DNA of 55,291 nt, from NCBI GenBank assembly GCA_011524855.1, contig WTJK01000033.1, positions 32,792 through 88,082 of the forward strand, read 5' to 3'. This DNA is from Methanobacteriota archaeon. Its GTDB lineage: Archaea; Thermoplasmatota; Poseidoniia; Poseidoniales; Poseidoniaceae. A model generated the notes under the pieces. That model had not been told where the DNA came from and searched no databases. It saw only the letters and a program-made list of their open reading frames with translations. A program made the position numbers and the translations under genes. Shown here one piece after another: positions 21,448 through 46,313 of this stretch. The first letter of the stretch is position 1. Each line of letters starts with the position of its first letter.

Positions 21448-22506
21448 ATGGCCGGACCGCCCGATGATGCTTGGCCAACACCCCTCGAGTTTGCGAAGGA
21501 CGAGCGCTCCAAGCGGCGAAAGGGCACCCTCCGGCCTCAGTTTGCGAAGGTTTGGACGCAACCTGGCGTTGTCCTCCCACGACCTGTGGCCGCCCACGTG
21601 TTCGTGAATCCTTATTCTGGACGGAAAAAAGGGGACACCATCGCGCAGGAAGTCTGCAAACGGCTCGAGCAAGCCAATGTGGTGACGACCGTGCACCGTT
21701 CCAACGCACCGGGTCATTTGGTTGAACTTGCACGAGAGGCCGACGTCCCCTCCGGCGCCGTGCTCCTTGTGGTTGGCGGTGATGGGAGCCTGTCGGAAGT
21801 GATCACCGGCCGCTTTGAACGCGGTTCTGCAGCCGACGATGTCTTCGGCATTGTGCCGGGCGGAACCGGCAATTCCCAAGCACACGACTTGGCCATTCAC
21901 AGCATTGATGATGCGATCAACACCGTGCTGGGGGGGCGTACTCAATCCCTCGACATTGGAAAAGTCGTTCTCACCGAGGGCCTACCAGGCCACGAAAAAG
22001 AACCGATTGTTCGCTACAGCCATAATTTGGTGACGTGGGGCCTGGGTGTTGATTCAACCATCAAGGCAGAACGCATGCGCTGGATGGGCCCGTTGCGTTA
22101 CGACGTTGGAATTGTGATGGCCATCCTGGCCAATCAACGACGGACAGCCGTCTTGGAGATGGACGGCGTGCGCCTTGAGGACGATTTCACGTTGTTGCTG
22201 ATTCAAAACAGCCAGACCGGGGGGTCACGGTTACCCTTGGCTCCGGGCGCCAGCCTCGATGACGGCAGCATGGACATTGGCATCTTGAAGAGCATGACGC
22301 GTCGCCAAGTCTTCCGCGCGTTTGGCATGCTGAAAGCTGAAGGACGTCACGTGTATCATCCTCGCGTGGATTACCACCGATTCAAAACGCTCACCATCAC
22401 CACGGCGAAGCCCACGGCCATCAACGTGGACGGTGAGAACCTCGGCTCAACCCCGCTCGAATTGACGGTGCTTCCGCGCGCCGTCCGACTGATGGTTCCC
22501 CCTTAG
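21448..22506 (+). CDS. Diacylglycerol-kinase catalytic-domain lipid kinase (YegS/BmrU/sphingosine-kinase-like)
   Basis: HVFVNPYSGRKKG, LLVVGGDGSLSEVI, GIVPGGTGNSQAHDL. ATG 21448 is in frame, with GTG 21427 as an alternative; the track start at 21115 overlaps ribD. Confidence 0.75.
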   Translation: MAGPPDDAWPTPLEFAKDERSKRRKGTLRPQFAKVWTQPGVVLPRPVAAHVFVNPYSGRKKGDTIAQEVCKRLEQANVVTTVHRSNAPGHLVELAREADVPSGAVLLVVGGDGSLSEVITGRFERGSAADDVFGIVPGGTGNSQAHDLAIHSIDDAINTVLGGRTQSLDIGKVVLTEGLPGHEKEPIVRYSHNLVTWGLGVDSTIKAERMRWMGPLRYDVGIVMAILANQRRTAVLEMDGVRLEDDFTLLLIQNSQTGGSRLPLAPGASLDDGSMDIGILKSMTRRQVFRAFGMLKAEGRHVYHPRVDYHRFKTLTITTAKPTAINVDGENLGSTPLELTVLPRAVRLMVPP

Positions 22507-23984
22507 AATGAAAAGTCCGAGAAGGAATCCTCGTCCTCGTCGTGGCTCGGTGGACGTTCCGCGACCGGTTCAGGTGCTGCGGGCTTGGCTTTTTTCGCCA
22601 CTCGCTTTCGGCGAACTGGAGGCGAAGAGGTTGCAGCTTCGGGCTCGTTTCGAACGGCACTGGGTTGAGAAGAACGCTGGGGGGGGCCGCCCCGTTGCTG
22701 CGGCGGCCCGGTGCTCCGTGGGGCGCTGCTGACCGGTGCTTCGCTCGCTTGCATCCGGTCCATGTTGGCGGCAGCATCGGTCACCACCACCGACGATGAA
22801 CGGCCCGAGGATGTGGAGGGTCCACTGGACTTGGAGGGCACACCAGCAGAGGCCAGCACGCTGTCGAGGTCGAAATCGCCGAGGCCAGCGTCCGTCGATT
22901 CTTCCTCTTTCTTTGCCTTCTTTGGGGGTTTGGTGCGTTCGGTTTGGCCTTCACGCTCCCGTCGTTCACGGTCCATGCGGGCTTTTCGCTCCGTGGGGGA
23001 TTCCATGCCGGCTTCTTTCGCCGCAGCAGCGTCTTTGCTTACTTTGCCCGCCTTTTCCATGCCTTCGCTTCCAACCAAGATGGCCATCGTCTTGGTGGCT
23101 GACTTCAGCACCATTCGGGATGAGGTGACGTACGCACCCACGAAACCACCGACTCCGCCGACCAGGAACAACAGCACGAACAGGGTTCGACCGATGAGCG
23201 GAACATCACCGTGCACCCATTCATCATCGGCCTCACCGTCCAAGCTGACCGTGCCGCCTTCAAGTTCAATGCTCGTCACAAGGACGTAGAATTTCTCGTA
23301 GTTGGTCGATCCCACCTCCATGGAACAGTCGTTGCCGACTTCGTAGGCCCGGAGACTGGACCACAAGCCTTCCTTTGTGGCATTGGCTGAAACCAAGTAG
23401 CCGCTGATCGACACCGGTTGGTGCCATTCGTTCAACGCCTTCATGCCGTTGAGCACGTTTTCGGAGACCGGAATCAAACCCAGAATGAACCAGCTGGTGC
23501 TGGATTCGGAATCAAGATCGTCAAGGTCCGCCGTTCCAGCACCGGTTTGGGGCATGAGTGGATTGCCCCAATTTTTCACGTTGACCCTTGAACCGTCCCC
23601 GTCTTCGATACTTGCGGCTTGAGCGAAGGGCATCTCCTCGATGCCCACCGCTGTCGTTACACCGAAATCAAGACCGCGTGCCCCGGTGATTTCATCGTGC
23701 GAATCGTACAATTGGCTCGCTGCAAGGTAACCCTCGAAGGTCACTTCTGTACCGTTACCGGGGGCGAGACTTCCACCCTCCGTGCCCGGTGTGCAACCGA
23801 CAGGGACGAGGTCCGAAGAGGTGGTCGAAGCGCCCGTGAGGGTGCTCTTGACGGTTGTGTCGTCCATGGCAAAGGACACTTCCACTGAGGATGAGCCGGA
23901 GCCCCACGACGCCGTGGCAGGCCCCAGGCATCCAGCCGTGACCATGGTCAGGAACACGCACACGGCCAGCGCTCTGCCTCGCAT
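22503..23984 (-). CDS. Membrane-anchored extracytoplasmic protein (lipobox-like signal, one C-proximal TM, long charged low-complexity cytoplasmic tail)
   Basis: MRGRALAVCVFLTMVTAGCLG signal. TM TLFVLLFLVGGVGGFVGAYV. Tail is rich in K/E/R/S/P and ends DEDEDSFSDFSF. Confidence 0.6.
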   Translation of the reverse strand: MRGRALAVCVFLTMVTAGCLGPATASWGSGSSSVEVSFAMDDTTVKSTLTGASTTSSDLVPVGCTPGTEGGSLAPGNGTEVTFEGYLAASQLYDSHDEITGARGLDFGVTTAVGIEEMPFAQAASIEDGDGSRVNVKNWGNPLMPQTGAGTADLDDLDSESSTSWFILGLIPVSENVLNGMKALNEWHQPVSISGYLVSANATKEGLWSSLRAYEVGNDCSMEVGSTNYEKFYVLVTSIELEGGTVSLDGEADDEWVHGDVPLIGRTLFVLLFLVGGVGGFVGAYVTSSRMVLKSATKTMAILVGSEGMEKAGKVSKDAAAAKEAGMESPTERKARMDRERREREGQTERTKPPKKAKKEEESTDAGLGDFDLDSVLASAGVPSKSSGPSTSSGRSSSVVVTDAAANMDRMQASEAPVSSAPRSTGPPQQRGGPPQRSSQPSAVRNEPEAATSSPPVRRKRVAKKAKPAAPEPVAERPPSHDEDEDSFSDFSF

Positions 23985-24151: not shown

Positions 24152-25684
24152 TTATTCGCCTTTCCTTCGGGTGTGTTCACCCTCGGCATGGGCACTTCGT
24201 GGCACGGCTGCTGCCATCATCATGGCACCTGCGGTCAGAGCAAGCGATGCCCAAGGGGTGTCGTTGTCTTCATAGCCTCCTGCACCTTGTTTGCGGAGCA
24301 GTTCGCGAACGTCTTCCGTGAAGTCCTCAGCGTGCCAGCGGTCACCCGTCCATGCCACCACGGGTTGCTTGCGGTCGTTGAGCAGGTAGGTGATGGTGGA
24401 ATGACCAACGGTGTAGTCCTCCGTCACCTCGGGCACGCAACTCAGGCGATCATCGTCGTCCCAAGCGTACCCTTCGTCGCACATGCAGTGCAGGGAAGCG
24501 CCGCTGCCCATCTCCCAGCCGTGGCCGTTACAGGCACCTTCCGAGGCGGGCTGGGTGGGTGCGGGCAAATCCGTTGCGTTCACCGTTGATGGTGCCCACG
24601 CCACGTGGTCGAGCTCCACAAGCCCGTCCATGCCCACTTCGCTGGACATCCATGCTTGTGCTGTGGCGTTCCACTGGTAGAGGTTCCACCACCAGCTTCC
24701 GTCATCGGGAGCGGTAGCGTTGTCGATGGTGGTCAAGTAGTGGCCGAAGGAGGATGATTCGACGTTGACCGAACGGTTGGCTCCTTCCATCGCCCCCTCC
24801 GTGAGGTGGTAGGCGGTGAAGGCCTCAACCGCAACGGTCTCGCTGGTTGAATTGTTCCATTGCACCGTCACGGAGGAGGCTTGGTCGGTGGGTGGAGCGG
24901 GGATCAACGACCGGTTGGTCGTGGAAGGGCGCCACGCCAGGTGGGCCTCCTCGAGGACGTCCACGTCCTCCATGCCCACCGGTGCCGTCTCCCATGCCAT
25001 GCCGCTGGCATTCCACACGTTCAACTCCCAGTACCACGACCAGTCCGAAGGCGATTCCATGCCGTCGATGCCGTGGAGGAACTTCCCCCACTGCCCATCG
25101 GTGACGTTCAATTCCCAACCGGCCTCTGCGGCCGCCAGGCGGGTGGCCGTCCATCCGTTGTAGGCGAACATGTGCGTGCTGGCGTTGCCCTCCACATCAA
25201 CGACCGTTACACTGGAGGCTCCGGGTTGGTAACCCATCACGTGGGCTTCAATGACGGATTCCTGCACGACCACACCGAAGTTTGCCCACACCGGTTCCAG
25301 CACCGTTTGGTTACCTGTCAAATGCGGCCATTCCACGCCGTGGAGGGCCGTGTACGCCGCCAACTGCTCAGGCGTGTCGTAAGCGGGGTCCACGGTGATG
25401 GAGATGAATTGAACGTCCGCGGCTTCTTCTTCCGTCAGTTCCAATTCCACGGATTTCAGCAGTTGCGTGATGACCGGGCACACGTCTGTGCAGCGGGTGA
25501 ACATGAACGACACGACGACCACGGAATGGGATTCAAACTCCAGGTCGTAGGTTGACCCGTCCTGCATGGTGAGTTCGAACGGCTCAACCGCTGTTCGGCT
25601 CAGTTGTTTTCCTGTGTAACCGGCGACAGGCGTCACCAACAGGGCCGTCACAAGCAGGACGACCAAGGTGGCTCTTGCGTTCAT
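24152..25684 (-). CDS. SCO1/SenC-family copper chaperone with a large internal insertion and C-terminal TM anchor
   Basis: SFMFTRCTDVCP (CxxxC) ... DYTVGHSTITYLLNDRKQPVV (His-ligand region), separated by ~360 aa. N-terminal TM ATLVVLLVTALLV. ATG 25684 is preferred; 25732 would overlap the CoxIV-like gene. Confidence 0.75.
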   Translation of the reverse strand: MNARATLVVLLVTALLVTPVAGYTGKQLSRTAVEPFELTMQDGSTYDLEFESHSVVVVSFMFTRCTDVCPVITQLLKSVELELTEEEAADVQFISITVDPAYDTPEQLAAYTALHGVEWPHLTGNQTVLEPVWANFGVVVQESVIEAHVMGYQPGASSVTVVDVEGNASTHMFAYNGWTATRLAAAEAGWELNVTDGQWGKFLHGIDGMESPSDWSWYWELNVWNASGMAWETAPVGMEDVDVLEEAHLAWRPSTTNRSLIPAPPTDQASSVTVQWNNSTSETVAVEAFTAYHLTEGAMEGANRSVNVESSSFGHYLTTIDNATAPDDGSWWWNLYQWNATAQAWMSSEVGMDGLVELDHVAWAPSTVNATDLPAPTQPASEGACNGHGWEMGSGASLHCMCDEGYAWDDDDRLSCVPEVTEDYTVGHSTITYLLNDRKQPVVAWTGDRWHAEDFTEDVRELLRKQGAGGYEDNDTPWASLALTAGAMMMAAAVPRSAHAEGEHTRRKGE

Positions 25685-25692
25685 CAAATCAC

Positions 25693-26064
25693 TCAGCGGT
25701 TCGTGGCGTAATCCCAGCTGGGCTTGCACCACCCTGGCAAAGCGTCAACGCCGTCGGGGTTGGACAGGCCAATGCCCCAAAGCATCAACAGCACGAACAA
25801 CACCGGGAACAGTGCGGTTCGAGTGTAGATGCGAGGGTCGCCCTTCAAGTGCATGAAATAGGCGGCGATGCCGTACCCCTTGACGATGCCAACACCGATC
25901 AAAATGGCCCACACCGCAGCCAGCGGGATACCAACAAAGAAGACGGCACCCACTTCAGCGAGCGTGAAAATCATCAAGATGATGAAGTTCCAGAAGTAAA
26001 TGTCCTGCCCGAGCAGGCCATCGAAGGTTTTCTCAAAAATTCCAGACGGTTCGTGTTCTCCCAT
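25693..26064 (-). CDS. Small heme-copper oxidase subunit (prokaryotic CoxIV-like)
   Basis: Three hydrophobic helices and the GIAAYFMHLKGD motif typical of COX4_pro-type subunits. Lies inside the cox cluster. Confidence 0.65.
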   Translation of the reverse strand: MGEHEPSGIFEKTFDGLLGQDIYFWNFIILMIFTLAEVGAVFFVGIPLAAVWAILIGVGIVKGYGIAAYFMHLKGDPRIYTRTALFPVLFVLLMLWGIGLSNPDGVDALPGWCKPSWDYATNR

Positions 26065-26073
26065 GATCTCACC

Positions 26074-27489
26074 TCAATACAGATAGAAGGCTGGGAAGAT
26101 GACCACCCAAGCCAAGTCAACAAAGTGCCAGTACAGGCCGAAGTACTCAATGCCCTGGCCGTTGTTTTCATCGTAACCAACGGTGTCAGCCTTGAACACC
26201 AGGTAGAGCATGATGAGCAACCCAACAAACACGTGCAAGCCGTGAGCGCCGGTTGAAATGTAGAAGATGGAGCCGGCCTGGGTGCCGATGGTGAAACCTT
26301 CCGCTACCAAGTGGCTCCACTCGATGAGCTTCAGGACGATGAACATCGAACCGAGCAGGAACGTGGCCAGGAGGTAGTTGCGGACAGCAATCTTCTGCGT
26401 TGGCATCAACTTGCCCAGGGCGCCCTTGGGTGCCTCCCAGTTCTTGGCCTTGGCTGTCTTGAGGGCAAGGACGATGGTGTAGGAGGAGATGATGAGCGCA
26501 AAGGTGTTGACAGCGCCGGGAAGCATCGTCCAGAAGTCACCGGTTCCTGCGGCACCGTCGGGTCGGAGGTAGTCCGAAGCGGTCATCACGAAGTCGGGGT
26601 GTTCCTCATGGTGGTTGATCACCATGTTCGGGAACTCACGGCACGTGCCTTCGTCGTAGGACCACTTGGTACACCAACCGGTGCGCATACGCAGATAGGA
26701 CGAGAAGAAGGAGGCGAACACCATGATTTCCGACATGATGAACACCCACATACCGGCCTTTCGCAGGTGCTGGCCCTCAAAGGGGGCAGACGTAGCGATT
26801 TGTTCGCCGTTGCCGATGAAGGGCAGATCCTCACGCCACCAGTTGGCGATGCCGAGGGTGATGACGGTGAGCCCGATCATCGAGACCCCGAGGTCACCCA
26901 GTGCGAAGTCATCGCCACTGAGCATGTTGCCCAGCACCGCTTGGAACTTGGGGAAACCCATGAGGAACAGCATGATACCCAACGAGAAAACGATGGGTGA
27001 GCCTGAACCGTGGTGCTCGTGGTCGTCGCCCCCGTAATGGTGGTCATCGTGGCCGTGATCGTCGCTGGGCTGGATGGAATTCACAAATCCACCAAGGGCC
27101 AGGAAGGCAGCGTAGGTGATGCACATCAACAGGATGGTCACACCGGCCGTTCGCCAGGTCAAGTAGGACAGGTGCGCCTCGATTTCGTCGTGGTGGGCCT
27201 TGTCGTAGGCTGCTTTTGCCTCTTCTTTGGCGGTTTTGAGTGCGCTCAGTTCAGCAGCCGTGGTGTTGTCGTCACCTTCCGCCAACTCGTAGGCGTTTTT
27301 GGCATCGTAATACACCTCCTTCGCTGCATCGTACTTGACGAGTTCTTCCTCGTAGTCGTGGTGCTTCACGTTGGCAACGCCAACACCCATGGTGGCGAAC
27401 GCCAACACACCAACGACCAGGAACACACCGCCCCAAACGACGGCGCGCATCCAGATGCTGTTCTCGACGTGTGCTTCTCCGCCGCTCAT
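26074..27489 (-). CDS. coxC: Cytochrome c oxidase subunit III with ~225-aa N-terminal extension
   Basis: C-terminal FYISTGAHGLHVFVGLLIM ... EYFGLYWHFVDLAWVVIFPAFYLY. The N-terminal extension has extra TM helices, a coiled region and DDHGHDDHHYGGDDHEHHG. Confidence 0.85.
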   Translation of the reverse strand: MSGGEAHVENSIWMRAVVWGGVFLVVGVLAFATMGVGVANVKHHDYEEELVKYDAAKEVYYDAKNAYELAEGDDNTTAAELSALKTAKEEAKAAYDKAHHDEIEAHLSYLTWRTAGVTILLMCITYAAFLALGGFVNSIQPSDDHGHDDHHYGGDDHEHHGSGSPIVFSLGIMLFLMGFPKFQAVLGNMLSGDDFALGDLGVSMIGLTVITLGIANWWREDLPFIGNGEQIATSAPFEGQHLRKAGMWVFIMSEIMVFASFFSSYLRMRTGWCTKWSYDEGTCREFPNMVINHHEEHPDFVMTASDYLRPDGAAGTGDFWTMLPGAVNTFALIISSYTIVLALKTAKAKNWEAPKGALGKLMPTQKIAVRNYLLATFLLGSMFIVLKLIEWSHLVAEGFTIGTQAGSIFYISTGAHGLHVFVGLLIMLYLVFKADTVGYDENNGQGIEYFGLYWHFVDLAWVVIFPAFYLY

Positions 27490-29828
27490 TCTTCAGCACC
27501 TCCTGCAGGTGAGGCGGACCAAAGCCGTTCTTTCAGCCCCGGCTCGTCCTTCTTCTCATGGTGGTGACCGTAGATCTCGTTCATGTCACGCTGCACGGGG
27601 AGGGCGTGGAACGAAGGCGTTGGCGGAGGTGAGGTGGTGGACCACTCGAGGGACCAACCGCCCCAGGGGTCCTTCCCGACTTTTTCGCCGCGACGGGCCG
27701 AGTACAGGATGTTCCAAACGAGGAGCAACTGGCTCAGACCGAAGATGAATGCGAAGGTGGAGACCGCAGCGTTGTACTCGGCGAAGCCGGACTCGATGGT
27801 GTACGAGTGGGTGCGCCGAGGCATGCCCATGATCCCCAAGGCGTGCATGGGCCAGAAGGCAGCGTTGTACGAAGCAAAGCCGATGAGGAAGTGCCAGAGG
27901 CCGAGGGTTTCGTTGAGCTTGCGTCCAGTGGCCTTGGGGTACCAGTAGTACACGGCTGAGAACAGCGCGAAGACGGTACCGCCGATGAACACGTAGTGGA
28001 AGTGCGCCACCACGAAGTACGAATCGTGGAAGTGGATGTCAAGACCCGCCACGGGGAAGAACATCCCCGAAATGCCACCCAGGGTGAACGTCACGAGGAA
28101 GCCCAAGGACCACAGGGTGTGGGTCTTCATGACGAGGGAACCGCCCCAGAGGGTGGCCAGCCAGTTGAAGATCTTGGCACCGGTGGGGATGGCGACCAGC
28201 ATGGTCATGATCATGAACAGCGCTCGCCAGAACGGATCCATACCGGAGGTCAACATGTGGTGGCCCCACACGATGAAACCGACGATGCCGATGCCGGCCA
28301 TGGCGATGACCATCGACTTGTAACCAAAGATGGAACGTCGAGCGGAGGTGGCGAGGACTTCGGACACGATGCCAAAGGCGGGCACGATGACCACGTACAC
28401 CTCAGGATGGCCGAAGAACCAGAACAGGTGTTGGAAGAGCAACGGATCGCCGCCGGCCACGAAGAACGTCGTTCCAATGGTGTGGTCGAACAGGAGGAAG
28501 GCCACGCCGATGATGAAGGCAGGCAGGGACATGAAGAGCATGAACACGCTGATGAAAACCGACCACGAGAACAGAGGCATCTTCATCCAGGTCACGCCCG
28601 GAGCGCGCATCGTGAACACCGTCGTGATGAAGTTCACACCACCGAGCGTGGACGAAGCACCCAGCATGACCATGCCGGAGATGAACGCTGTTGTGCCCGG
28701 ATTCGAACCGTAATCCGCCAAGGTTGACCCGAGGTTTGATTCGGTGAGACTGGAGTACGGCGGGTACATCACCCAGGAAATGTCAGCGGCTTCGCCGGAC
28801 CAAATACCGGTGAAGATGAGGGGTGCGGAGAACACGAGCAGCCACAGACCCATGGCGTTGATGCGTGGGAAAGCCAAGTCAGCTGCACCGATTTGGAGCG
28901 GCAGCACGTAATTCATGAAGCCTGCAATCATGGGCATGGCGGCCAGGAAAATCATCGTTGTACCGTGGAGGGTGAAGAACGAGTTGTATTCGTCGTACGT
29001 CAGGAAGTCGTTTTCCGGAATGGCGAGCTGGATGCGGAACAGCAGGGCCAACAACCCACCGACGAGGAAGAAGAAGAACCCGAAGAGGAAGTACATGATA
29101 CCAACTTGCTTGTGGTCGGTGGTGGTGAGCCATGGCTTGAGCGAGCCCCAGAACCGAGCGATGGTGAACGTTTCCGGCGAAGAGCGGTAGAACGTCCACA
29201 GGACACCGGTAAAGATGAGCGCCACGGCGAGACCGATGGCGGTAATGAAGATGACCAGAGCGCTGGCGCTGGGCGCCACGGCACCTGCGTTGACGCCGGG
29301 GATCATGATGTTGGCGACGTTCCAGTAGTCACCGCTTGAGCCACCGCCGCCGCCGGAGTTTCCGTTCACAGCGTTGCCGTAAACGGTCATCTCGACGTTG
29401 AGGTCGTCGGCTGCTGGTGCCGTCCATTCCACGGTCCACGAACGAACCAGGTTCCCTTCAGCGGTGTGGGTGAGGCCGCCGTCCATGATGTGGCTGAGGC
29501 TGTCGGGCACGGTGTTGACTTCACCTTCCGAGACGAGGATGCGGAAACCGCCGTAGGGCACGGTGCGTGCGCCGTCCGTGACGACACCGTCGCCTTCCAG
29601 GGCCATGACATCGTTGACGACCGTGACGGTGAACGTGTAGGTCTCGCTGGCGTTGTAAGTTTCGGGCAACCCGTCGACGATCACCGACGTGTCAGGGCTG
29701 GCGCCGCCGTGACAGGAACAGCCCTGATCACCGGCACCACCGATGCCGCCGGGGGCGGCCGTCATCTGGGGCGTGGCCACCAGGGCAAGCACCACAAGCG
29801 CCAACATCAGCGTGGTTCGGGAGCGCAT
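27486..29828 (-). CDS. coxA: Cytochrome c oxidase subunit I with ~225-aa N-terminal extracytoplasmic extension
   Basis: Canonical core: TDHKQVGIMYFLFG, WFFGHPEVYVVI, GMPRR, HFHYVFIGG. The extension begins with a signal/anchor helix and GDQGCSCHGG. Its ATG overlaps the coxII stop by 1 nt, and its stop overlaps the coxIII ATG by 4 nt. Confidence 0.9.
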   Translation of the reverse strand: MRSRTTLMLALVVLALVATPQMTAAPGGIGGAGDQGCSCHGGASPDTSVIVDGLPETYNASETYTFTVTVVNDVMALEGDGVVTDGARTVPYGGFRILVSEGEVNTVPDSLSHIMDGGLTHTAEGNLVRSWTVEWTAPAADDLNVEMTVYGNAVNGNSGGGGGSSGDYWNVANIMIPGVNAGAVAPSASALVIFITAIGLAVALIFTGVLWTFYRSSPETFTIARFWGSLKPWLTTTDHKQVGIMYFLFGFFFFLVGGLLALLFRIQLAIPENDFLTYDEYNSFFTLHGTTMIFLAAMPMIAGFMNYVLPLQIGAADLAFPRINAMGLWLLVFSAPLIFTGIWSGEAADISWVMYPPYSSLTESNLGSTLADYGSNPGTTAFISGMVMLGASSTLGGVNFITTVFTMRAPGVTWMKMPLFSWSVFISVFMLFMSLPAFIIGVAFLLFDHTIGTTFFVAGGDPLLFQHLFWFFGHPEVYVVIVPAFGIVSEVLATSARRSIFGYKSMVIAMAGIGIVGFIVWGHHMLTSGMDPFWRALFMIMTMLVAIPTGAKIFNWLATLWGGSLVMKTHTLWSLGFLVTFTLGGISGMFFPVAGLDIHFHDSYFVVAHFHYVFIGGTVFALFSAVYYWYPKATGRKLNETLGLWHFLIGFASYNAAFWPMHALGIMGMPRRTHSYTIESGFAEYNAAVSTFAFIFGLSQLLLVWNILYSARRGEKVGKDPWGGWSLEWSTTSPPPTPSFHALPVQRDMNEIYGHHHEKKDEPGLKERLWSASPAGGAEE

Positions 29829-30868
29829 CAGTACGCACCTCCAGCAGGCGGTGCGTTACCGGGCGTCTTCTTCACGCCGGTGTCGACCGCACAGGTGGTG
29901 CCTTCAGCAGCGACCACTTTGACCTGGCCGTACATCACCGAGTGCTGAGCGCCGCAGTACTCGGCGCATCGAATGGGGAAGGTGCCAGGGTCGTCGGCCA
30001 TCACGGTCATGACCGTGCCGCCTTCAATACCAGGGACCAGATCTTCCTTGACACCCCATTCAGGCAGCCAGAACGAGTGTTGAACACCGATGTAGTTGGG
30101 GTTGGAATCGTCCGATGGGCGGGAGTGCATCGTGAAAACGATGTCTTCGTCGCAGGGGATGATCATGTCTTCACCCAGCGCCGAGGAAAACGAGAACATG
30201 TTGCCGTTGGGGTCCATGCCGGGGATGTGCATCCACGTGTGGAGGAGGGCGCCGTCTGCGTCGGTCACTTCAACCGTGGCGAACAGCCGTGGGTTGAACG
30301 TGAGGGCGGCGTCTTGGTCTTGGCCAATGCCGGTGGTGCTGTCGATGCTGACGGGGTCGAGGTCGGCGCCGTCGATGGAGACGGTGAAGTTGGCTGCACT
30401 CGTACCGGTGGCAGTCACGAGGACCGTGTCACCGTTCCAGTCCACGTCGATGCCCGTGGAGGCAGGGTCGTCCTCCCAGGTCAGGGCGTCCTCGTAGTGG
30501 TATTCCCAAAACCATTGCTTGCCGATGATGGTCATGTTGTGAGCGTCTTCGTCGTCGGGAATGCTCCATACGGCGGTGTTGGACGCCAAGGCCATCATGA
30601 TGAGCCAGACCACGATGAGGGTGGGGAGGACGTAAAAGAAGACCTCGACACGGGTGTTGTGACGGTCAACGGGGAAAGCACCGACCTCGATATGGTCGAT
30701 GTGCGTGGTGTCCGGCTCGACGCCTTCTCGGTAGCGCAACACGGCCAAATAGAGCCAAGCGAACGTGAAGACACCCACGATAATGGCCCAGAACATGAAT
30801 TTATCATAGAGAACAGAAAATACCGTGTCTTCAGCGACCACGCAACCACCCTGTTTGACCGGCCGCAT
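29828..30868 (-). CDS. coxB: Cytochrome c oxidase subunit II (CuA) with an insertion in the cupredoxin domain
   Basis: Two N-terminal TM helices, GKQWFWEYHY, VQHSFWLPEWGVKEDLVPG, and CuA site CAEYCGAQHSVM. No cytochrome c (CxxCH) domain. Confidence 0.9.
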   Translation of the reverse strand: MRPVKQGGCVVAEDTVFSVLYDKFMFWAIIVGVFTFAWLYLAVLRYREGVEPDTTHIDHIEVGAFPVDRHNTRVEVFFYVLPTLIVVWLIMMALASNTAVWSIPDDEDAHNMTIIGKQWFWEYHYEDALTWEDDPASTGIDVDWNGDTVLVTATGTSAANFTVSIDGADLDPVSIDSTTGIGQDQDAALTFNPRLFATVEVTDADGALLHTWMHIPGMDPNGNMFSFSSALGEDMIIPCDEDIVFTMHSRPSDDSNPNYIGVQHSFWLPEWGVKEDLVPGIEGGTVMTVMADDPGTFPIRCAEYCGAQHSVMYGQVKVVAAEGTTCAVDTGVKKTPGNAPPAGGAY

Positions 30869-38872: not shown

Positions 38873-39055
38873 ATGCCTCGACGCAAGTACGGCCGTCTAC
38901 GAAAAACGGTTGAACAACCGTCCAAGGACAACTGCTCCCGTTGCCGTTCAGGAAAGCACTGCCCCATCGAAGGCCACGAGGGTCAAGCCGTGCTGGCCAA
39001 CAAAGGCTGGGTTGGCCCTCAGACCGTCCCCAAACGGAAGAAGCGCCGATCATGA
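38873..39055 (+). CDS. Possible small basic Cys/His protein
   Basis: MPRRKYGRLRKT...CSRCRSGKHCPIEGH...PKRKKRRS. It lies 40 nt downstream of the HhH gene on the same strand. It is short, so coding status is uncertain. Confidence 0.3.
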   Translation: MPRRKYGRLRKTVEQPSKDNCSRCRSGKHCPIEGHEGQAVLANKGWVGPQTVPKRKKRRS

Positions 39056-40246
39056 TGCGTTCAGGCCGGCACCGCTGGTTGACGGGGTGAGGGGTTCGAC
39101 AGCAGCGATCGGTCCATCGGTGTCCATTCGGAGTGCTTGCGCACGATGGTAGACTTCGCGAAGTGTTTGGTCTGAAATTTCGAGGTACACGCGAGTGGTA
39201 GCGATGGTTGCATGCCCCATCAGGCGTTGAATGGTCACCAAGTCTGCGCCTCGCTCGAGCAAGCCGGTTGCAAAATTATGGCGAAGGACGTGAGGCGTCA
39301 GTTTGCCTTTGGGCAAGCCCGCCTCAACCGCAAGGGTGTCCATCATGCGTTGAACACTGCGAGGTTGCAACGGGCGACCTTGCTGGTTCAGCAGGGCAGG
39401 ACCTGCGTCCTTGCCCACCATGGACAAGCGCACCGGTTCCCACGCCTCCAGCGAACGCAAGGTTCGGGCCGTGAACAACACCGTGCGATCTTTATCCCCT
39501 TTTCCACCAAAAACCCGTGCCGAACCGTCCTCCATGTCGATGTCCTCCATGTTCAGTGCGCACACCTCGCTCACGCGAAGACCTGTGTCGAGCATCAGCG
39601 TGACCAGGAGGGCCATGGCGGGGTGTTCACTGCATGACGCCGCTTCAAGCACGGCGGTCAGCTCACGTTTGGTCAAGGTCCTTGGAAGGCGCTTTCCGGT
39701 CCGGACCCGCTGCAGGTGGTCGGGCCATGTCAACCCCAGCCACCGAACGAAGTGGCGGGCGGCGGCCAAGCGGGCGTTGAACGTGGTGGGCCGCAGACCT
39801 GCGATGCTGTGCGCCCATACATCGAGCCGTCCGTTCATGGGCTCCATGCGCTGGGCCATTGCTTCAACACTGAGACCTTCAACGAAATCAGCAGATGGCG
39901 TCTGTTCGTTGGGCAAGGCCGTTTCGATGAGGGCCATCAGTCCGTAAAAGTAGGATTTCTGGGTGTTGGCAGATTTGTTTTCGGCGTGCAACTGGCGTTC
40001 ATAACACGTGCGCCATGGCAGATGGCGAAGGTGAGCCAAGCGAGCAGGAAGGTCGGGGCCGTCGGGCTGGGACAGTCGCATCTGGCTCGGGCGACGGGCC
40101 CGTGGTTGTGGCGTTCGCATCGTGTTCTCGTCCATTGGCGTCACCGCCTCCCGCCGAAGCGGGTGTGCATCCCGTGCCCCGAAGAGCATGTTGCACTCAG
40201 CGGCCTGCTTAATGAAATCATCGTTGAAAGGAAGGAAAGGCGACAT
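39050..40246 (-). CDS. xerA: Tyrosine recombinase XerA-like (phage-integrase family)
   Basis: C-terminal catalytic region ...GLRVSEVCAL..., HVLRHNFATGLLERGADLVTIQRLMGHATIATTRVYLEI. The real start may be M at 40135. Confidence 0.8.
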   Translation of the reverse strand: MSPFLPFNDDFIKQAAECNMLFGARDAHPLRREAVTPMDENTMRTPQPRARRPSQMRLSQPDGPDLPARLAHLRHLPWRTCYERQLHAENKSANTQKSYFYGLMALIETALPNEQTPSADFVEGLSVEAMAQRMEPMNGRLDVWAHSIAGLRPTTFNARLAAARHFVRWLGLTWPDHLQRVRTGKRLPRTLTKRELTAVLEAASCSEHPAMALLVTLMLDTGLRVSEVCALNMEDIDMEDGSARVFGGKGDKDRTVLFTARTLRSLEAWEPVRLSMVGKDAGPALLNQQGRPLQPRSVQRMMDTLAVEAGLPKGKLTPHVLRHNFATGLLERGADLVTIQRLMGHATIATTRVYLEISDQTLREVYHRAQALRMDTDGPIAAVEPLTPSTSGAGLNAS

Positions 40247-40988: not shown

Positions 40989-43900
40989 TCAACGTTCTTG
41001 CTCGGTTAACCAATGCTGAACCTGGTCTCGGTGGGTTTCAATGTACCCCTTCCATTGCTCCTTGGCCCAACCTTCGGGCATTGGACCGTCCAACCAAGCG
41101 AGGAATTGTTGACCGGTCCAACCCTGGGGGATGATCTCGGGTCGAGGCGAGGAGGCACGTTGTTCCGAAATCACATTGTCTTGGACCATGGTGGGTGCGT
41201 CAAACAGCGTGTCAAAATCCACGGATGAAGACGCCGCCCATGCATCGGATTTCTCTTCTCGGACCCCGTGTCTGTTGCGGGCGAACCGAGCACCGATGAG
41301 GGCGACCGTGGCGATCAGGGCTGCAACACCCAAAACCAGGGTGGGCTGCATGCCCGGACCTGATTTCGCACCGTCGGTTTCCGCAGCATCGGTTGCGGTT
41401 GTGGTGTTGCAGGAGGTGCACGGTCCGGCGGGGCCAACGGTCACTTGGCTTGATTGGGTCACGGTTTGCATCAATTCGTCGACGCAAGTGACGTTCACTG
41501 CGAGTGTTTGGTTGGCAAGGGTTCTGGGGAGCGGGTACATCCATCCCATCAGCGTTGAGAATTGGGTTGCCTCGCCAGCCGCTTGGGACGACTGCATCAA
41601 TTGGGTTCCGTTGCTGTCCATCACGGCCAGGGAACAAATGACGTTGCTCAAGCCGTCCTCATCGCTGACACCGAGGGTCATGTGCAGGTCGGTTTCAGGA
41701 ATCGCCTCGCTGATGTTGAGGGGTTCAAGCAGGGTGGGTGCATGTTGGAACATGAGGTCAAGCGTGAAGCTTCGGCTCAGTCCGTCAACATCGCGCACGT
41801 TGACCAATACGGCGCCCTCACCGTCGAGGAATGAGGGGTCAAGGCGCAATCGAAACAGGTGCCAGTCGACCTCAGAGCCGTTGAGGCTCGTCGGCATTTC
41901 ACATCCCAAAGGCGCTGCACCCTCGTCCCACACCGGTGCTTCAGCCTCCGGTGCAACAACGGCCCACCCGTCTTGGACGAGCTGAGCGGTGACGCGATCC
42001 ACCGGACGGTCGCTGACGATGGCCACGGCAAGGGTGCCCACATCACCGAACGTCATGCTTTCCAACACACCGTTGCCATCGCATGCTTGAGCAGCATCGA
42101 CCTCGGGCGGCGTCAGCAGGAAGGGAAGGCTCATTCCGACCTCGGTGACGGCACCGTTTGGACCACGTCCTGTGACCCGAACACTCACCTCCCCGGCTTC
42201 AAGACCGCCGGGAATTTGTTCCATGCGCCATCGGACGGTGGAGGCGTTTGCTGCGATGTCCACGGGTGTTTGTGAGGGCGCGCCACCGGGCCACTGCACG
42301 TAAGCGTCCCCAACAAAGGTCGGCCTCGGGTCGTCGATGTCACTGACGGTCACCACCAGGTGTTCCTCGCCGTTGTTGACCAACCGGTCCAAGCGTTCTC
42401 CGTTGAGGTGTTCGGCATGGAGGGTCAAGGTTGGTGCGACATCCAGCACAGCGAAGGTCCGTTGGAGGAGCAGGGAGCCTTGCAGGGTTCGAACTTCCAT
42501 GCGTGCGGCATCAAGGCTGGAGCCGGCGCCGAGCAACCACGTGGTTTCGTAGCACACAGCGTTGGTTGACACCGACGTCGATTCCGTGATGTTCGTCACG
42601 TTGCCTCGGTTGGGCAAAAACACCGGCCATGCATCGCCTGGACGCCGATCCTCGTCCTGCACGCAAGCGCGCACCCGCTGCGAGAGGTGTCGTGGAACGG
42701 GCGTGGTAGGCTGAGGAGCGAGCGTGGTGGTGCCCGTCCATGAAGGGTCGTCCACATCGGACACGTGCGGGCCGAACCACCGAGCCGGCGAGTCCACGAT
42801 GGCGGAGGACGCGGTGGGATTCGACTGAACGATCAACCCCAAGTCGTCCTCCACAACGGCTCGAATCACCAAGGTTCCCAACGATGCGTTGGCTGGAATG
42901 ACCAGCGCACTCTCCCATGTTCGTTCGTTGATTTGGCCCAAGGGAAGCAGGTTCCACTCCTCGGTTAGGTTCTCCAGCGTCCCGTTGATGATTTGCCATG
43001 CGAGGGTCACGTTGGTCACGTTGCCATCGTCTTCGGCCTCCACCGAACAAATCGTGTAGGTGCCGCGGGTGATGCTGTTGGCTCGGCACAGAACGGTATC
43101 GACGGAGGGTGGTTCGTTCACCGAAGTCTGGAAGGTCAGCAAGTTGTTGGAAAAAGCACGTTCAGGGGTGCTGTTGGTGTACCTCAGCCGAAGGTCGAGC
43201 AAGCCGGATGAGGGGAGAACGACGGTCAAGTTCACCACGGTCCGGCTTCCAAGAGCATCACCCGCAGGTAAGGAGAGGTTGGTGGTGTTCAGCGTTTGGC
43301 TACCGACCAAGGTTTCCAAACGGAGGTTGCCGTTGGCAGCCGACATGCCCCGGTTTTCGAGCAGCACATGGACGGTGGTTGGTACGCCGAGGTGAACGGG
43401 TTGGGGCACGTGGACATCGAGCAGGGCCACATCGTGGTAAATGTCAGCGTATGCACTCATTTTGGGATCACCCACAACCACGCCCATCCATCCAGAGAGC
43501 AGGTTGGCAGCAGCGTGGCTCTCAGCGAGGTTGTACCCCGAGGCGTAGGTCGGCAACAAAACATCGGGGCGCCCCACAGCGGTCAGGTACGGTTCGTACA
43601 CGTAGCCTTTGACACCTGAAATGCCGTCCTCAAGCAGATCGGCCACGAGCGACTGGCCGTACCCCGTCCCCCAATTGAACGAGCGACCTCCCGTGGAAAC
43701 GGCCGTATCGCCGATGGAACCGTTCACCCACGACATGTGAGGCCGAATCGGCCGCAGTGAAAGGGTGTCAAGGAACAACGTGCCATCGGTGGAGGTGGGA
43801 ACGATGTCGAGAAGGATGGACACCCTGAACGCTACGGCGTTGGCATCGGGCCGGAACCGAACCGTCTCAGCGGTCCATGAAGGGCCAAACGCCTCCTCGC

Positions 43901-46313
43901 CCGAGGCGTTGGTGTTCAGCACGTTGCCTGCTGCATCCAAGGATTGAATGCGGAGGGAAAAGGAGCCGAACACATCGCCCGTGCGTTGTCCATGGGCGTA
44001 AAGGATCCAGGCATGGTCGGTCAGGTTCTGATCAGCCGTGCTGAAATCGTACACGGAGGAGAGTTCAGCGACATCGTTGCCGTGTCCAGAAAACGATGAA
44101 CAATTGTCCACGATTTCTCGGCGTAACACACCGATGTCATGCGGTGTGAGCGTGGTGTTCCATACCCGCACGTTGTCGATGAAGCCGTGGTAGAAGGCGC
44201 TGCCCGCGCGATTGACGCCCAGTTTGATCCGGTCGACGGTCAGCGTTTGGTTGGGCGGAAGCGAGACGTTGTTGACCAACACACCGTCAACGTAGAGCTT
44301 CAAGGTCCCGTTCTCGTGGGTGGATGCCAAATGCGTCCATCGTTGTGCCTCGACCGCTCCAAACGTGTGGGACTGGTTCGTGTGGAAACGCCAGGTGCCG
44401 CTGCTGACCATGTGCTGGAACGAACCGTTTGAGCCGGCGTTGTTGTCCACGGCAAACGTGGATGCATAGGAGGTTTGGTTGGAGGTGTTGGCTTTCACCC
44501 ATTGACTGACCGTGAACGGTCCGGTCCAATCGTCAACCTCCGCCGAGACGACGTCGTCCGAGCCATCGAACGACAAACAACCCCCGTCCACACAGGTGGC
44601 CCAGTTGCTGTTGCCCATCCCTGACGACATGGTGAGGTCAGCGGTGCCGGCCGTGTCCGCTGCGGATGCGCCCGTTCCGTCCTCAAACGTCCATTCGTGC
44701 ATCATGCGATCGGGTTGGGGGAGATGGCCCCCAGCGACGACGAAAGCAGACGCTGGAACGGGTGCCTTGGTCGTGTTTGGACCCGACCAGGAGAAGATCA
44801 AACCGTGCGGACCACCGCCCTGGTAGAACTCGATTCTGAAATCGTGAAGCCCAGCCGTGAGGTTCACCCACCCCGAGCGCTCTCTCATGCCGTGCATGCC
44901 GTGGTTTTCAACCAGACTCACGCCGTTGATCCACAGCTCCGACCCGTCGTCGGAGTTGAGGAAGAAACTCCAGTTGCCAGCGGTTGGGACATCGATGAAG
45001 CCCGTGAAACGGGCGCCCCAGTGTTGCTTAAATCGGTCGTCCAAGCCCGGATAGGCCGAGTTGGAGGAACCTCGATTCACGTCGGCTTCAATTCGCACAT
45101 GGTCGGGTGTTCGTTCGGTCAAATCGGGCATCGGGGAGTTCGTGATCGACACGCCGTTGTTGTCGAAATACTCTGCATACACGCCGTTCAGGTTCCCCCC
45201 GGCATCCTGGTCACAGGTCGTGGAGAGTTCCAACCCCATGGCGAAATTGCCGTTTCGTTTGACCTCCCCCTGATGGAGCCACGTTGCCGTGTCCCCGCCG
45301 CTGACGGAAGGAGCGGTGGCGTTCCAGTACCTCGCTCCGCTCGACCAACCGGTGTTGGCGGTGTCAAATCCTGCGTTGGGCAAGCGGTTGGCGTTCCAGT
45401 TTCCGTCGTTGCTTCCCCATGAGGCGTACCCCATCACGTCGTCCAAACCTGTCAGAAACAGTGTTTCTTCGTCCAGCACGACCGGGAGCCCCATCGTGCC
45501 GTTGAGCGTGGTGTTGGCGTCGTAGAGCGCATCGTTCCAGAATTTGTAGCCTGAGCCGTTTCGGTTGGTGGCCACGTCCAAGACAAAGTCGCCTCGAGCA
45601 CCGAGGCTTTGATTGGCGCGCTCAATCAGTTCAAGGGCGGTGTCCACCGTGTATCCTGTCAATCGAGTGACGAGAAAAAACCCGTATTTGCTTCGAGAAA
45701 AAGGTTCCATCGCTTGCCCTGCGAGCGGACCGTAACCGTGATTGAACCATCCGTTGTTGCCGATTGAACTGTTGTAGCTGCCGCCGAGCAGAGCGAATTC
45801 TTGGTCAAAACTTGCTTTGTCGTTGCCACCGCTGACCCGCAGGGGAACCCCTTTCGTGGTAACCAGGAAATTGATGCCGGATGCGGAGGTTCGGTTTTGC
45901 AGCATCTCCAGGAAGGGTTCAGCGAAGTAGGTGTTGAACTGGTTTCGGTTGATCGTTTCACCCGTTGGTGTACCGCTTTCGTTGAACAAAAACACGCGCT
46001 CGAGTGGAATGTTACGAGCAGCGACGAAGGCCCAGCCAATGGTCCGTGATGCCTCGGAGAGGTTGTTGATGACCACCCCAACATCGCTGTAATCCACGGT
46101 GTCCATGTAGCTGAACCCCGCTGGGCGAGCGGCCCCCCAAGCGGTTGAGGTGTTCCACGGGGCCGTCTCGTTGCTGACGGTGAACCCTTGAAACGCTGCA
46201 TGCTCCAACACCGATGCGTCAGGTTCGTGGAACGGTGTTGGTTTCATTGCGCCGGTCCACGATGCCCCCATCAACAGGAACAGCATGAGGATGCATGCTC
46301 CCTTAGAGGTCAT
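40989..46313 (-). CDS. Giant (1774 aa) cell-surface protein: signal peptide, PA14, LamG-like, CBM-like and CARDB-like modules, C-terminal TM and Trp-rich cytoplasmic tail
   Basis: Signal ACILMLFLLMGASWTGA. PA14: VYAEYFDNNG...GNWSFFLNSDDGSELWINGV...GLHDFRIEFYQGGGPHGLIFSW. LamG-like: LSFDGSDDVV...FTVSQWVK...LKLYVDGVLV...FIDNVRVWN. TM LVLGVAALIATVALIGA. Many N-x-S/T sequons. Confidence 0.85.
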   Translation of the reverse strand: MTSKGACILMLFLLMGASWTGAMKPTPFHEPDASVLEHAAFQGFTVSNETAPWNTSTAWGAARPAGFSYMDTVDYSDVGVVINNLSEASRTIGWAFVAARNIPLERVFLFNESGTPTGETINRNQFNTYFAEPFLEMLQNRTSASGINFLVTTKGVPLRVSGGNDKASFDQEFALLGGSYNSSIGNNGWFNHGYGPLAGQAMEPFSRSKYGFFLVTRLTGYTVDTALELIERANQSLGARGDFVLDVATNRNGSGYKFWNDALYDANTTLNGTMGLPVVLDEETLFLTGLDDVMGYASWGSNDGNWNANRLPNAGFDTANTGWSSGARYWNATAPSVSGGDTATWLHQGEVKRNGNFAMGLELSTTCDQDAGGNLNGVYAEYFDNNGVSITNSPMPDLTERTPDHVRIEADVNRGSSNSAYPGLDDRFKQHWGARFTGFIDVPTAGNWSFFLNSDDGSELWINGVSLVENHGMHGMRERSGWVNLTAGLHDFRIEFYQGGGPHGLIFSWSGPNTTKAPVPASAFVVAGGHLPQPDRMMHEWTFEDGTGASAADTAGTADLTMSSGMGNSNWATCVDGGCLSFDGSDDVVSAEVDDWTGPFTVSQWVKANTSNQTSYASTFAVDNNAGSNGSFQHMVSSGTWRFHTNQSHTFGAVEAQRWTHLASTHENGTLKLYVDGVLVNNVSLPPNQTLTVDRIKLGVNRAGSAFYHGFIDNVRVWNTTLTPHDIGVLRREIVDNCSSFSGHGNDVAELSSVYDFSTADQNLTDHAWILYAHGQRTGDVFGSFSLRIQSLDAAGNVLNTNASGEEAFGPSWTAETVRFRPDANAVAFRVSILLDIVPTSTDGTLFLDTLSLRPIRPHMSWVNGSIGDTAVSTGGRSFNWGTGYGQSLVADLLEDGISGVKGYVYEPYLTAVGRPDVLLPTYASGYNLAESHAAANLLSGWMGVVVGDPKMSAYADIYHDVALLDVHVPQPVHLGVPTTVHVLLENRGMSAANGNLRLETLVGSQTLNTTNLSLPAGDALGSRTVVNLTVVLPSSGLLDLRLRYTNSTPERAFSNNLLTFQTSVNEPPSVDTVLCRANSITRGTYTICSVEAEDDGNVTNVTLAWQIINGTLENLTEEWNLLPLGQINERTWESALVIPANASLGTLVIRAVVEDDLGLIVQSNPTASSAIVDSPARWFGPHVSDVDDPSWTGTTTLAPQPTTPVPRHLSQRVRACVQDEDRRPGDAWPVFLPNRGNVTNITESTSVSTNAVCYETTWLLGAGSSLDAARMEVRTLQGSLLLQRTFAVLDVAPTLTLHAEHLNGERLDRLVNNGEEHLVVTVSDIDDPRPTFVGDAYVQWPGGAPSQTPVDIAANASTVRWRMEQIPGGLEAGEVSVRVTGRGPNGAVTEVGMSLPFLLTPPEVDAAQACDGNGVLESMTFGDVGTLAVAIVSDRPVDRVTAQLVQDGWAVVAPEAEAPVWDEGAAPLGCEMPTSLNGSEVDWHLFRLRLDPSFLDGEGAVLVNVRDVDGLSRSFTLDLMFQHAPTLLEPLNISEAIPETDLHMTLGVSDEDGLSNVICSLAVMDSNGTQLMQSSQAAGEATQFSTLMGWMYPLPRTLANQTLAVNVTCVDELMQTVTQSSQVTVGPAGPCTSCNTTTATDAAETDGAKSGPGMQPTLVLGVAALIATVALIGARFARNRHGVREEKSDAWAASSSVDFDTLFDAPTMVQDNVISEQRASSPRPEIIPQGWTGQQFLAWLDGPMPEGWAKEQWKGYIETHRDQVQHWLTEQER

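Follow-up and report, generated by a model that had tools for sequence, protein, structure and literature searches.

The question raised by this locus is how a terminal oxidase obtains its electrons and its copper when most of its subunits carry unusual additional modules and no electron donor is encoded beside it. The window, by which we mean the whole stretch of 55,291 nucleotides analyzed here (contig WTJK01000033.1, positions 32,792 to 88,082), comes from a Poseidoniaceae archaeon, and at 24152-30868 on its minus strand it carries five co-directional, tightly coupled genes, coxII, coxI, coxIII, coxIV, and sco1. The operon encodes a CuA-containing heme-copper oxidase of the proton-pumping A1 type and is that of a Poseidoniaceae (Marine Group II a) archaeon. 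The initial annotation had proposed that it encodes a self-contained electron-input and copper-handling apparatus. The explanation that we favor, and that we regard as moderately probable, is that this is an ordinary A1 oxidase with modules gained stepwise, that a blue-copper donor would feed it through CuA, and that the module at the N terminus of CoxI would be a metal accessory. The five genes are as follows.

29828-30868, minus strand: coxII, 346 amino acids (aa), with two transmembrane (TM) helices and a CuA cupredoxin domain (Pfam COX2, 42 bits; TIGR02866, 110 bits).
27486-29828, minus strand: coxI, 780 aa (COX1, 476 bits, residues 242-695; TIGR02891, 633.4 bits, residues 233-745).
26074-27489, minus strand: coxIII, 471 aa, with a five-TM core from about residue 225 (COX3, 64 bits, residues 365-470 only; NCBIfam; hydropathy).
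25693-26064, minus strand: coxIV-like small subunit, 123 aa, with no add-on (Pfam COX4_pro, 46 bits).
24152-25732, minus strand: sco1, 526 aa as listed, with an N-terminal anchor (SCO1-SenC, 90 bits with a cut-off of 22.8, residues 50-164).

The Pfam and NCBIfam matches and the motifs agree with the earlier description of a standard A-type five-gene cluster in which four of the five products carry non-canonical modules, the coxIV-like product being plain. The coxII/coxI junction is TGATG, and coxI and coxIII overlap at ATGA. CoxII has complete CuA ligands, H264 (in HSFW) and C301-x-E-x-C305-x3-H309-x2-M312 (CAEYCGAQHSVM at residue 301), and this set of H, C-x-E-x-C, H, and M in subunit II is that of a cytochrome c oxidase rather than a quinol oxidase. 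CoxI has GHPEVY at residue 473, GHHM at residue 522, and HFHY at residue 609, which are the metal ligands and the helix-VI motif of the A1 type, with its D-channel Glu and cross-linked Tyr. Based on the CuA ligand set in CoxII and the A1 motifs in CoxI, we conclude that this is an A-type CuA oxidase and not a quinol oxidase. The match of CoxI to the CtaD/CoxA equivalog model TIGR02891 spans model positions 1-503 of 504 and is just below the cut-off of 670.75, which marks CoxI as a divergent member of the A1 oxidases. As the initial annotation had stated, a CxxCH motif, a blue-copper gene, and a heme O/A synthase gene are all missing from the cluster: scans of open reading frames (ORFs) found no CxxCH in the cluster, and hence neither the mark of a caa3-type oxidase nor that of a c-type cytochrome, no type-1 copper protein in the 55-kb window apart from the CuA site of CoxII, and no UbiA or COX15 family match among the window ORFs scanned. 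The location of heme O/A synthase genes outside the cluster is normal for Marine Group II (MGII), in which the genes for heme O synthase and heme A synthase are next to each other at another place in the genome (supplement of PMC9723583).

For comparison, we used 80 loci from a scan of species-representative genomes, with CoxI identities of 75% to 99% (below, L numbers denote loci of relatives, P numbers denote proteins, and the genes of the window are the reference). To look for a donor, the plastocyanin-like domain of P0061, a protein described below, was searched against all ORFs of the fetched loci. It matched six Poseidoniaceae loci (L057, L067, L073, L075, L077, and L079), which carry a decorated CoxII and CoxI like those of the window and in which a gene for a fasciclin-plus-cupredoxin protein of ~312 aa, oriented divergently from coxII, lies 0.7 to 1 kb upstream of it. 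Besides a signal peptide and a PGF-CTERM anchor, the ~312-aa protein has one fasciclin domain and a cupredoxin in which the type-1 ligands are complete (HNV ... C-E-P-H-x2-M), with scores of 108 bits for PF02469, 45 to 52 bits for PF00127 (cut-off 21.2), and 29 bits for TIGR04126. The FAS1-cupredoxin family comprises at least 7,900 proteins, and a 460-aa form with two fasciclin domains is found on JASLVM010000006.1 (L089) in Poseidonia sp. ETNP17_MAG_14, a metagenome-assembled genome (MAG) that has the decorated operon on another contig, JASLVM010000055.1 (L023, CoxI 85% identical). Self-contained electron input is therefore not borne out, since six loci encode a blue-copper protein beside a decorated coxII and one MAG encodes one elsewhere. 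The donor is missing only locally: relatives have a candidate, the CuA ligands of CoxII are canonical, and so is its QWFWEY strand, the home of the electron-entry Trp in characterized enzymes. MGII have cytochrome b and Rieske protein and no cytochrome c1 (PMC6336850), and this, together with the blue-copper genes in relatives, makes an ordinary archaeal-style chain the economical reading. Judged by sequence, the donor is most likely the fasciclin-cupredoxin surface protein. In such a chain, a membrane-tethered protein with a halocyanin-like cupredoxin and a PGF-CTERM anchor would be reduced by the cytochrome b/Rieske complex, and electrons would pass from quinol through cytochrome b/Rieske and blue copper into the enzyme by the canonical CuA site of CoxII.

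The gene for the form with two fasciclin domains (454 to 460 aa; L084 to L090 and L098 to L100) has a fixed neighborhood of AhpC-like, AsnC, and enolase genes, an 80-aa ORF, the cupredoxin gene itself, and a GSDH/TrAA12-like beta-propeller gene, with an amine-oxidase-like flavoprotein and a small Rieske protein further downstream. This arrangement hints at a surface dehydrogenase that feeds a blue-copper protein. The published MGII "halocyanin/plastocyanin" proteins were rejected as carriers; these are Prokka names for multidomain proteins of 777 and 2,641 aa and not small carriers.

The most unusual part of the enzyme is at the N terminus of CoxI, where residues 1-232 consist of a Sec-type signal peptide, a 155-aa domain, a Gly/Ser linker, and an extra TM helix (residues 191-209). 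Because the canonical CoxI N terminus is cytoplasmic, the extra helix is required by topology if the domain is to be outside the cell. The features of this domain are as follows.

29310-29774, minus strand: CoxI N-domain, residues 19-173, a choice-of-anchor V domain (NF041895; NCBIfam 75.6 bits with a cut-off of 42).
29709-29720, minus strand: Cys37-x-Cys39-His40 motif, invariant in the 80 Poseidoniaceae and nearly so across the wider family.
29463-29471, minus strand: second conserved His, Thr-His121-Thr, from alignments of the N-domain.

The NF041895 match covers model positions 6-148 of 150, and the corresponding domains of L094, L095, P0060, and P0061 also pass the cut-off. An AlphaFold2 (AF2) model of the domain has a mean local confidence (pLDDT) of 84 and a predicted template-modeling score (pTM) of 0.83, and its best Foldseek match in the PDB is the F-spondin Reeler domain (E value of 2e-5; TM-score, 0.42-0.54). 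A profile search of the PDB gave a weak match to Spondin-1 (E value of 1.3), there is no Pfam match to Reeler (PF02014), and Pfam searches with the excised add-ons at E<=5 gave nothing usable. On the strength of the model, the domain appears to be a Reeler-like beta-sandwich at the level of fold, which is what had been guessed initially. It has 537 relatives among 1.8 billion representative proteins, most of them ~200 aa long with a signal peptide, the domain, and a C-terminal anchor helix. Five motifs, C-x-C-H, GGF, T-H-T, W..W.AP, and GNAVNG, are nearly invariant in this family down to ~30% identity, and G-C-x-C-H-G is invariant in the Poseidoniaceae CoxI N-domains. The signal peptides of the N-domains contain no twin-arginine motif, so export is apparently by Sec and any cofactor would be loaded outside the cell, which excludes a pre-assembled iron-sulfur (Fe-S) cluster. 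An Fe-S cluster had been considered since Rieske box II reads CPCHG, and it was rejected because there is no twin-arginine motif and there are only two Cys.

The domain is fused to CoxI in relatives whose CoxI cores are as little as 36% identical to that of the window (L094; 62% in L095 and 60% in L097). In L094, a stand-alone 210-aa NF041895 paralog directly follows coxI, which gives two domain copies per operon. At the P0060 locus, COX3, COX2, and COX1 (722 aa) are followed by a multicopper-oxidase-like gene and then by the stand-alone domain protein P0060. In P0061 (L096, 8001-9944), a choice-of-anchor V domain is combined with three CARDB repeats, a plastocyanin-like domain, and a C-terminal anchor, and P0122 is built likewise but has no cupredoxin. 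The domain is thus tied to oxidase genes by repeated or ancient fusion, with an extra operon copy in one distant lineage. Since its partners (CoxI, the P0061 cupredoxin, and the multicopper-oxidase-like neighbor of P0060) are all copper proteins, copper handling is favored over an electron relay. Two Cys and two His on an outward-facing beta-sandwich plausibly form a copper or zinc site, and by analogy the domain is most likely a metal-binding accessory. Held on the outer face of the enzyme by its one added TM tether, it would handle copper for the assembly or maintenance of CuA and CuB. The neighborhoods of P0211, P0198, P0214, and P0061 were dropped as functional clues, as they are non-respiratory and have no informative neighbors, and P0341 was rejected as a link to the nearest species (L002, QQSC01) because it is from a different MAG, QQSF01.

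The second module of interest is in Sco, in which the fold is split.

25478-25492, minus strand: CxxxC motif (CTDVC, residues 81-85).
24413-25237, minus strand: Sco insertion, residues 166-440, with two Trp-rich DUF4430/transcobalamin-beta-like domains and a knot (alignment, AF2, Foldseek).
24437-24532, minus strand: 4-Cys knot within the insertion (alignment).
24395-24406, minus strand: His motif GHST (residue 443).

The protein has the thioredoxin fold, CxxxC, and distal His of the SCO1/SenC family, and an insertion of ~275 aa divides the fold, so that CxxxC and GHST are ~360 residues apart compared with ~90 in characterized Sco proteins. The AF2 model of the insertion (pLDDT 83) has two alpha/beta units followed by a small beta knot. 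Its top 18 Foldseek matches are all DUF4430 or transcobalamin beta-domains, including 3u7z (E values of 3e-3 to 4e-2; TM-score, 0.52-0.55 per target), and no Pfam match to DUF4430 was found at E<=5; the initial guess of a DUF4430-like insert is thus supported at the level of fold only. In the knot, C401, M408, H415, C416, M417, C418, and C432 are invariant and H404 is nearly so, and the knot ends ~10 residues before the Sco His motif. The spacings H-x3-M and H-x-M recall the His/Met Cu(I) site of PCuAC/PcuC (PMC6669012). By this analogy the knot, which directly precedes the His ligand of Sco in the sequence, may be a built-in Cu(I) relay. With its listed GTG start, sco1 overlaps coxIV by 40 nucleotides, and residues 1-16 are not conserved; as relatives align only from residues 15-39, Met17 (ATG at 25684, MNARATLVVLL…) is the likelier start, which gives a protein of ~510 aa.

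The remaining modules are in CoxII and CoxIII.

30089-30487, minus strand: CoxII insert region, residues 128-260, between two PDB-alignable blocks.
26815-27489, minus strand: CoxIII N-terminal extension, residues 1-225, with four predicted TM helices (conservation, hydropathy).
27004-27069, minus strand: CoxIII His/Asp-rich loop, residues 141-162, predicted to be cytoplasmic by helix parity.

The CoxII insert is between the QWFWEY strand and the HSFW CuA strand. Residues 127 and 261 of CoxII align with residues 129 and 178 of Paracoccus CoxII, so the cupredoxin domain has ~85 extra residues; the insert is present as the initial annotation had described, and its size is smaller than the ~105 residues given there. 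In CoxIII, the extension runs in the order TM1, Ala/Glu/Lys-rich segment, TM2, His/Asp-rich loop, TM3, and TM4. A large extension had been claimed, correctly, with an extracytoplasmic His/Asp loop, a placement that the prediction reverses: helix parity puts the loop in the cytoplasm. In L095 and L097, the His-rich stretch is at the very N terminus of CoxIII with no signal peptide and is followed by seven helices as in the canonical subunit III. The loop may be a proton antenna or a metal site near the D-channel entrance. The Ala/Glu/Lys-rich segment between TM1 and TM2 is poorly conserved and is the sole part of the extension predicted to face outward. This segment and the CoxII insert are probably structural surface decoration.

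Within the family, the modules travel together. All five genes are present in every one of the 80 loci that has enough flank, the matches span the full query, and the ORF sizes are similar, which answers the question of whether the add-ons are co-conserved across related MAGs: they are present at full length in 80 Poseidoniaceae species. In the Poseidoniaceae loci, the CoxI N-domain is 54% to 97% identical and the core 83% to 99%, and its per-residue conservation shows the N-domain to be under purifying selection. Per-residue conservation differs among the other modules. In the CoxII insert and the outer CoxIII segment, length is maintained and sequence conservation is poor; conservation is moderate in the Sco insertion and very high in its terminal Cys-rich knot. 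The 80 loci are from Poseidonia, Poseidoniaceae, or Poseidoniales MAGs save for two obviously mis-binned records, L028 (NZEQ01000060.1), labeled Verrucomicrobiales bacterium, and L064 (CAXRAI010000017.1), labeled Salinimicrobium sp.; these labels probably reflect binning contamination or mislabeling. The FAS1-cupredoxin MAH42064.1 is likewise labeled Verrucomicrobiales.

Metatranscriptome contigs cover the add-ons continuously with their cores, as had been suggested as a check. Contigs from a population ~93% to 95% identical are unbroken over 28945-30640, which includes the CoxI core, the N-domain, and CoxII with its insert, and contigs from the same population are unbroken over 24152-26139 (sco1 and coxIV) and over 26110-27274 (coxIII). 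This indicates that the full-length decorated forms are transcribed, with the caveat that metatranscriptome libraries can contain DNA.

In more distant relatives, the modules vary independently of one another.

Window (reference): CoxI fused, 780 aa; CoxII 346 aa with insert; CoxIII 471 aa with four extra TM helices and His/Asp loop; Sco 526 aa with two repeats and knot.
L095 (syntenic with the window, CoxI core 62% identical): CoxI fused, 776 aa; CoxII 238 aa, plain; CoxIII 391 aa, with the His-rich stretch and two helices kept and no TM1 or coil; Sco 384 aa, with one repeat and the same knot.
L097 (CoxI core 60% identical): CoxI fused, with one in-frame TAG; CoxII without insert; CoxIII with His-rich N terminus; no sco seen.
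L094 (CoxI core 36% identical): CoxI fused, 727 aa, plus the 210-aa paralog; CoxII 248 aa, plain; CoxIII 262 aa, plain; no sco in the operon.

The CoxII insert is thus absent from all three. The view of the add-ons as one co-traveling apparatus holds within the family and fails at this distance. It follows from their independent variation that the modules were gained stepwise in the evolution of marine Thermoplasmatota; by the distribution of sequences, the CoxI domain, the most widespread, was gained first, and the latest gains were the insert of CoxII, the second repeat of Sco, and the hairpin of CoxIII. In L097, a single in-frame TAG (1087-1089; …DAFDW*HLAPWIAEWLTSTDHKK…, one Logan contig) interrupts the ORF of the domain and CoxI. 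We rejected this locus as a naturally split gene with a domain protein between coxII and coxI, since both ORFs are in one frame with a single TAG between them. It therefore counts as one more fusion, and its TAG may come from a sequencing error, mark a pseudogene, or be the site of a genuine split with re-initiation. The initial annotation had named two observations that would speak against a self-contained apparatus, namely, add-ons that vary independently and an ordinary donor that docks on a canonical CuA face. Both were largely made, the first at a distance and the second in that an ordinary kind of donor exists, with a putative docking on CuA.

Several observations weigh against the ordinary oxidase with a blue-copper donor and a metal-handling CoxI module. 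The candidate donor is known from relatives, a blue-copper gene is absent within 10 kb in 74 of the 80 loci, and the best NCBIfam match of the relatives' cupredoxins, halocyanin (TIGR03102), is at 50 to 51 bits, below the cut-off of 93.8; the FAS1-cupredoxin could serve another surface redox function. Most stand-alone members of the N-domain family do not adjoin respiratory genes, bacterial members are at the tip of long surface proteins, and a general binding module fits these equally well. The metal or cofactor role of the domain is predicted from conserved residues, and the fold search gave no similarity to Cox11 or PCuAC: neither Cox11/CtaG, with its CFCF motif, nor PCuAC (DUF461), with its H(M)X10MX21HXM motif, is a Pfam or NCBIfam match of the N-domain or among its top 50 fold matches. 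That the Cys-x-Cys-His Reeler-like domain is a new cofactor-binding subunit of marine Thermoplasmatota oxidases, either a built-in copper chaperone in place of Cox11/PCuAC or a new type of electron-entry center, with the Sco knot as a matching Cu(I) relay, is a possibility that we hold as doubtful.

In one alternative, the CoxI N-domain holds a redox cofactor (a Cys/His copper or a C-x-C-H heme) and passes electrons to CuA, in the manner of the cytochrome c fused in caa3 oxidases, so that no diffusible or separate donor is needed or electrons come straight from cytochrome b/Rieske. We consider this quite improbable. The C-x-C-H is invariant and the second His conserved, the domain is on the outer face tethered beside TM1 of CoxI, and in P0061 it is joined to a plastocyanin-like domain. 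In eukaryotes, ferric-chelate reductase 1 contains a Reeler domain next to DOMON and cytochrome b561 domains. MGII, moreover, have no cytochrome c1 and yet carry ccm genes (supplement of PMC9723583). However, heme c is not known to be attached through C-x-C-H, the cluster has no CxxCH, and Foldseek found no cupredoxin or cytochrome fold match for the N-domain. A blue-copper protein is nonetheless encoded beside the operon in relatives that have this fused domain, the CuA entry strand of CoxII is canonical, and the two domain copies per operon in L094 are hard to square with a single relay.

It is also conceivable, and in our estimate unlikely, that the four add-ons are cofactor-free and structural, serving as envelope or S-layer contacts, glycosylated shields, or stabilizers of an enzyme exposed at the surface of a cell with no outer membrane, and that the conserved Cys and His serve to bind a structural zinc or to form a disulfide. 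The poor conservation of the CoxII insert and the outward CoxIII segment would fit this, as would many N-x-S/T sequons, the independent coming and going of add-ons among lineages, the non-respiratory neighborhoods of most stand-alone N-domain proteins, and the fact that Reeler, DUF4430, CARDB, fn3, and EGF-like folds are typical of surface proteins. Against this reading, Cys-x-Cys-His and Thr-His-Thr are nearly invariant down to ~30% identity, and the domain is repeatedly linked to CoxI, even where the cores are 36% identical. The four Cys, two His, and two Met of the Sco knot, all invariant or nearly so and right before the copper-ligand His, likewise point to a functional site.

Compared with the aa3 oxidases of Paracoccus denitrificans and Rhodobacter sphaeroides (1QLE and 1M56), the operon has the same subunits I, II, III, and small IV, the GHPEVY D-channel/Tyr motif, the CuA ligands, the entry Trp strand, and a Sco factor in the operon. 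It differs in the exported N-domain and TM helix of CoxI, the ~85 extra residues of CoxII, and the four extra TM helices and His/Asp loop of CoxIII, and its donor is probably a blue-copper protein and not cytochrome c. The nearest counterparts of the proposed donor chain are archaeal oxidases fed by blue-copper proteins, namely, Natronomonas pharaonis ba3 with halocyanin and the Sulfolobus SoxM complex with sulfocyanin SoxE. With these the system shares a cytochrome b/Rieske complex without c1, a probable membrane-anchored type-1 copper carrier, and a CuA subunit II, whereas the candidate cupredoxin is joined to one or two fasciclin domains, has a PGF-CTERM anchor, and is not part of the operon in this window. 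Like caa3 oxidases, the enzyme has an extra outward-facing module fused to a core subunit; unlike them, it has no CxxCH or cytochrome c fold, and the fusion is at the N terminus of subunit I and not in subunit II.

The CoxI module itself shares with NF041895 and the F-spondin Reeler domain (2ZOU and 3COO) a score above the NCBIfam cut-off and a beta-sandwich fold. Typical NF041895 proteins are ~200-aa stand-alone surface proteins with a C-terminal anchor, whereas here the anchor helix runs into CoxI. We found no published function for NF041895 and no literature on choice-of-anchor V, on MXAN_6652, or on Reeler domains together with an oxidase. With Cox11/CtaG, the domain has in common an outward-facing beta-sandwich with Cys-x-Cys, like the CFCF of Cox11 (Ig-like fold). 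The Sco protein has the CxxxC and His of Sco1/SenC and differs by the ~275-aa insertion, and its knot, with His-x3-Met and His-x-Met, recalls PCuAC with its HxM (PMC6669012). The resemblance to Cox11 and PCuAC would be one of functional analogy and not of homology.

A further gene may be a sixth member of the operon.

22503-23984, minus strand: co-directional gene of 493 aa, a possible sixth member, which comes immediately behind sco1 in 65 Poseidoniaceae loci and also in the distant L095.

Its product is lipoprotein-like at the N terminus and has a beta-rich part that faces outward, a single TM helix, and a long charged tail, rich in Lys, Glu, and Pro, that ends in FSDFSF; it has no Pfam or NCBIfam match. 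Elsewhere in the window, a phage-integrase-family tyrosine recombinase gene (39050-40246, minus strand; Pfam 123 bits) adjoins a 1,774-aa ORF (40989-46313), and this may be a mobile-element boundary. The ORF at 3-2582 (minus strand) encodes a secreted protein in which Pfam TSP_3 (87 bits) matches four stretches of thrombospondin type-3 repeats.

Marine Group II archaea are uncultured and among the most abundant surface-ocean heterotrophs, and published genome surveys say of their oxidase only "cytochrome c oxidase present." What is new here is the CoxI N-terminal module and with it a genetic link between the Cys-x-Cys-His Reeler-like family and heme-copper oxidases; the split Sco with its His/Met/Cys knot is second in interest. 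This link provides a first functional context for an uncharacterized NCBIfam family (choice-of-anchor V), and the 160-aa soluble domain and the 35-aa knot are expressible targets for the study of copper delivery and electron entry in archaeal respiration. If the domain does bind a cofactor and the Sco knot is a relay, respiration in the most abundant archaea of the plankton would rely on a system of copper handling that has yet to be described.

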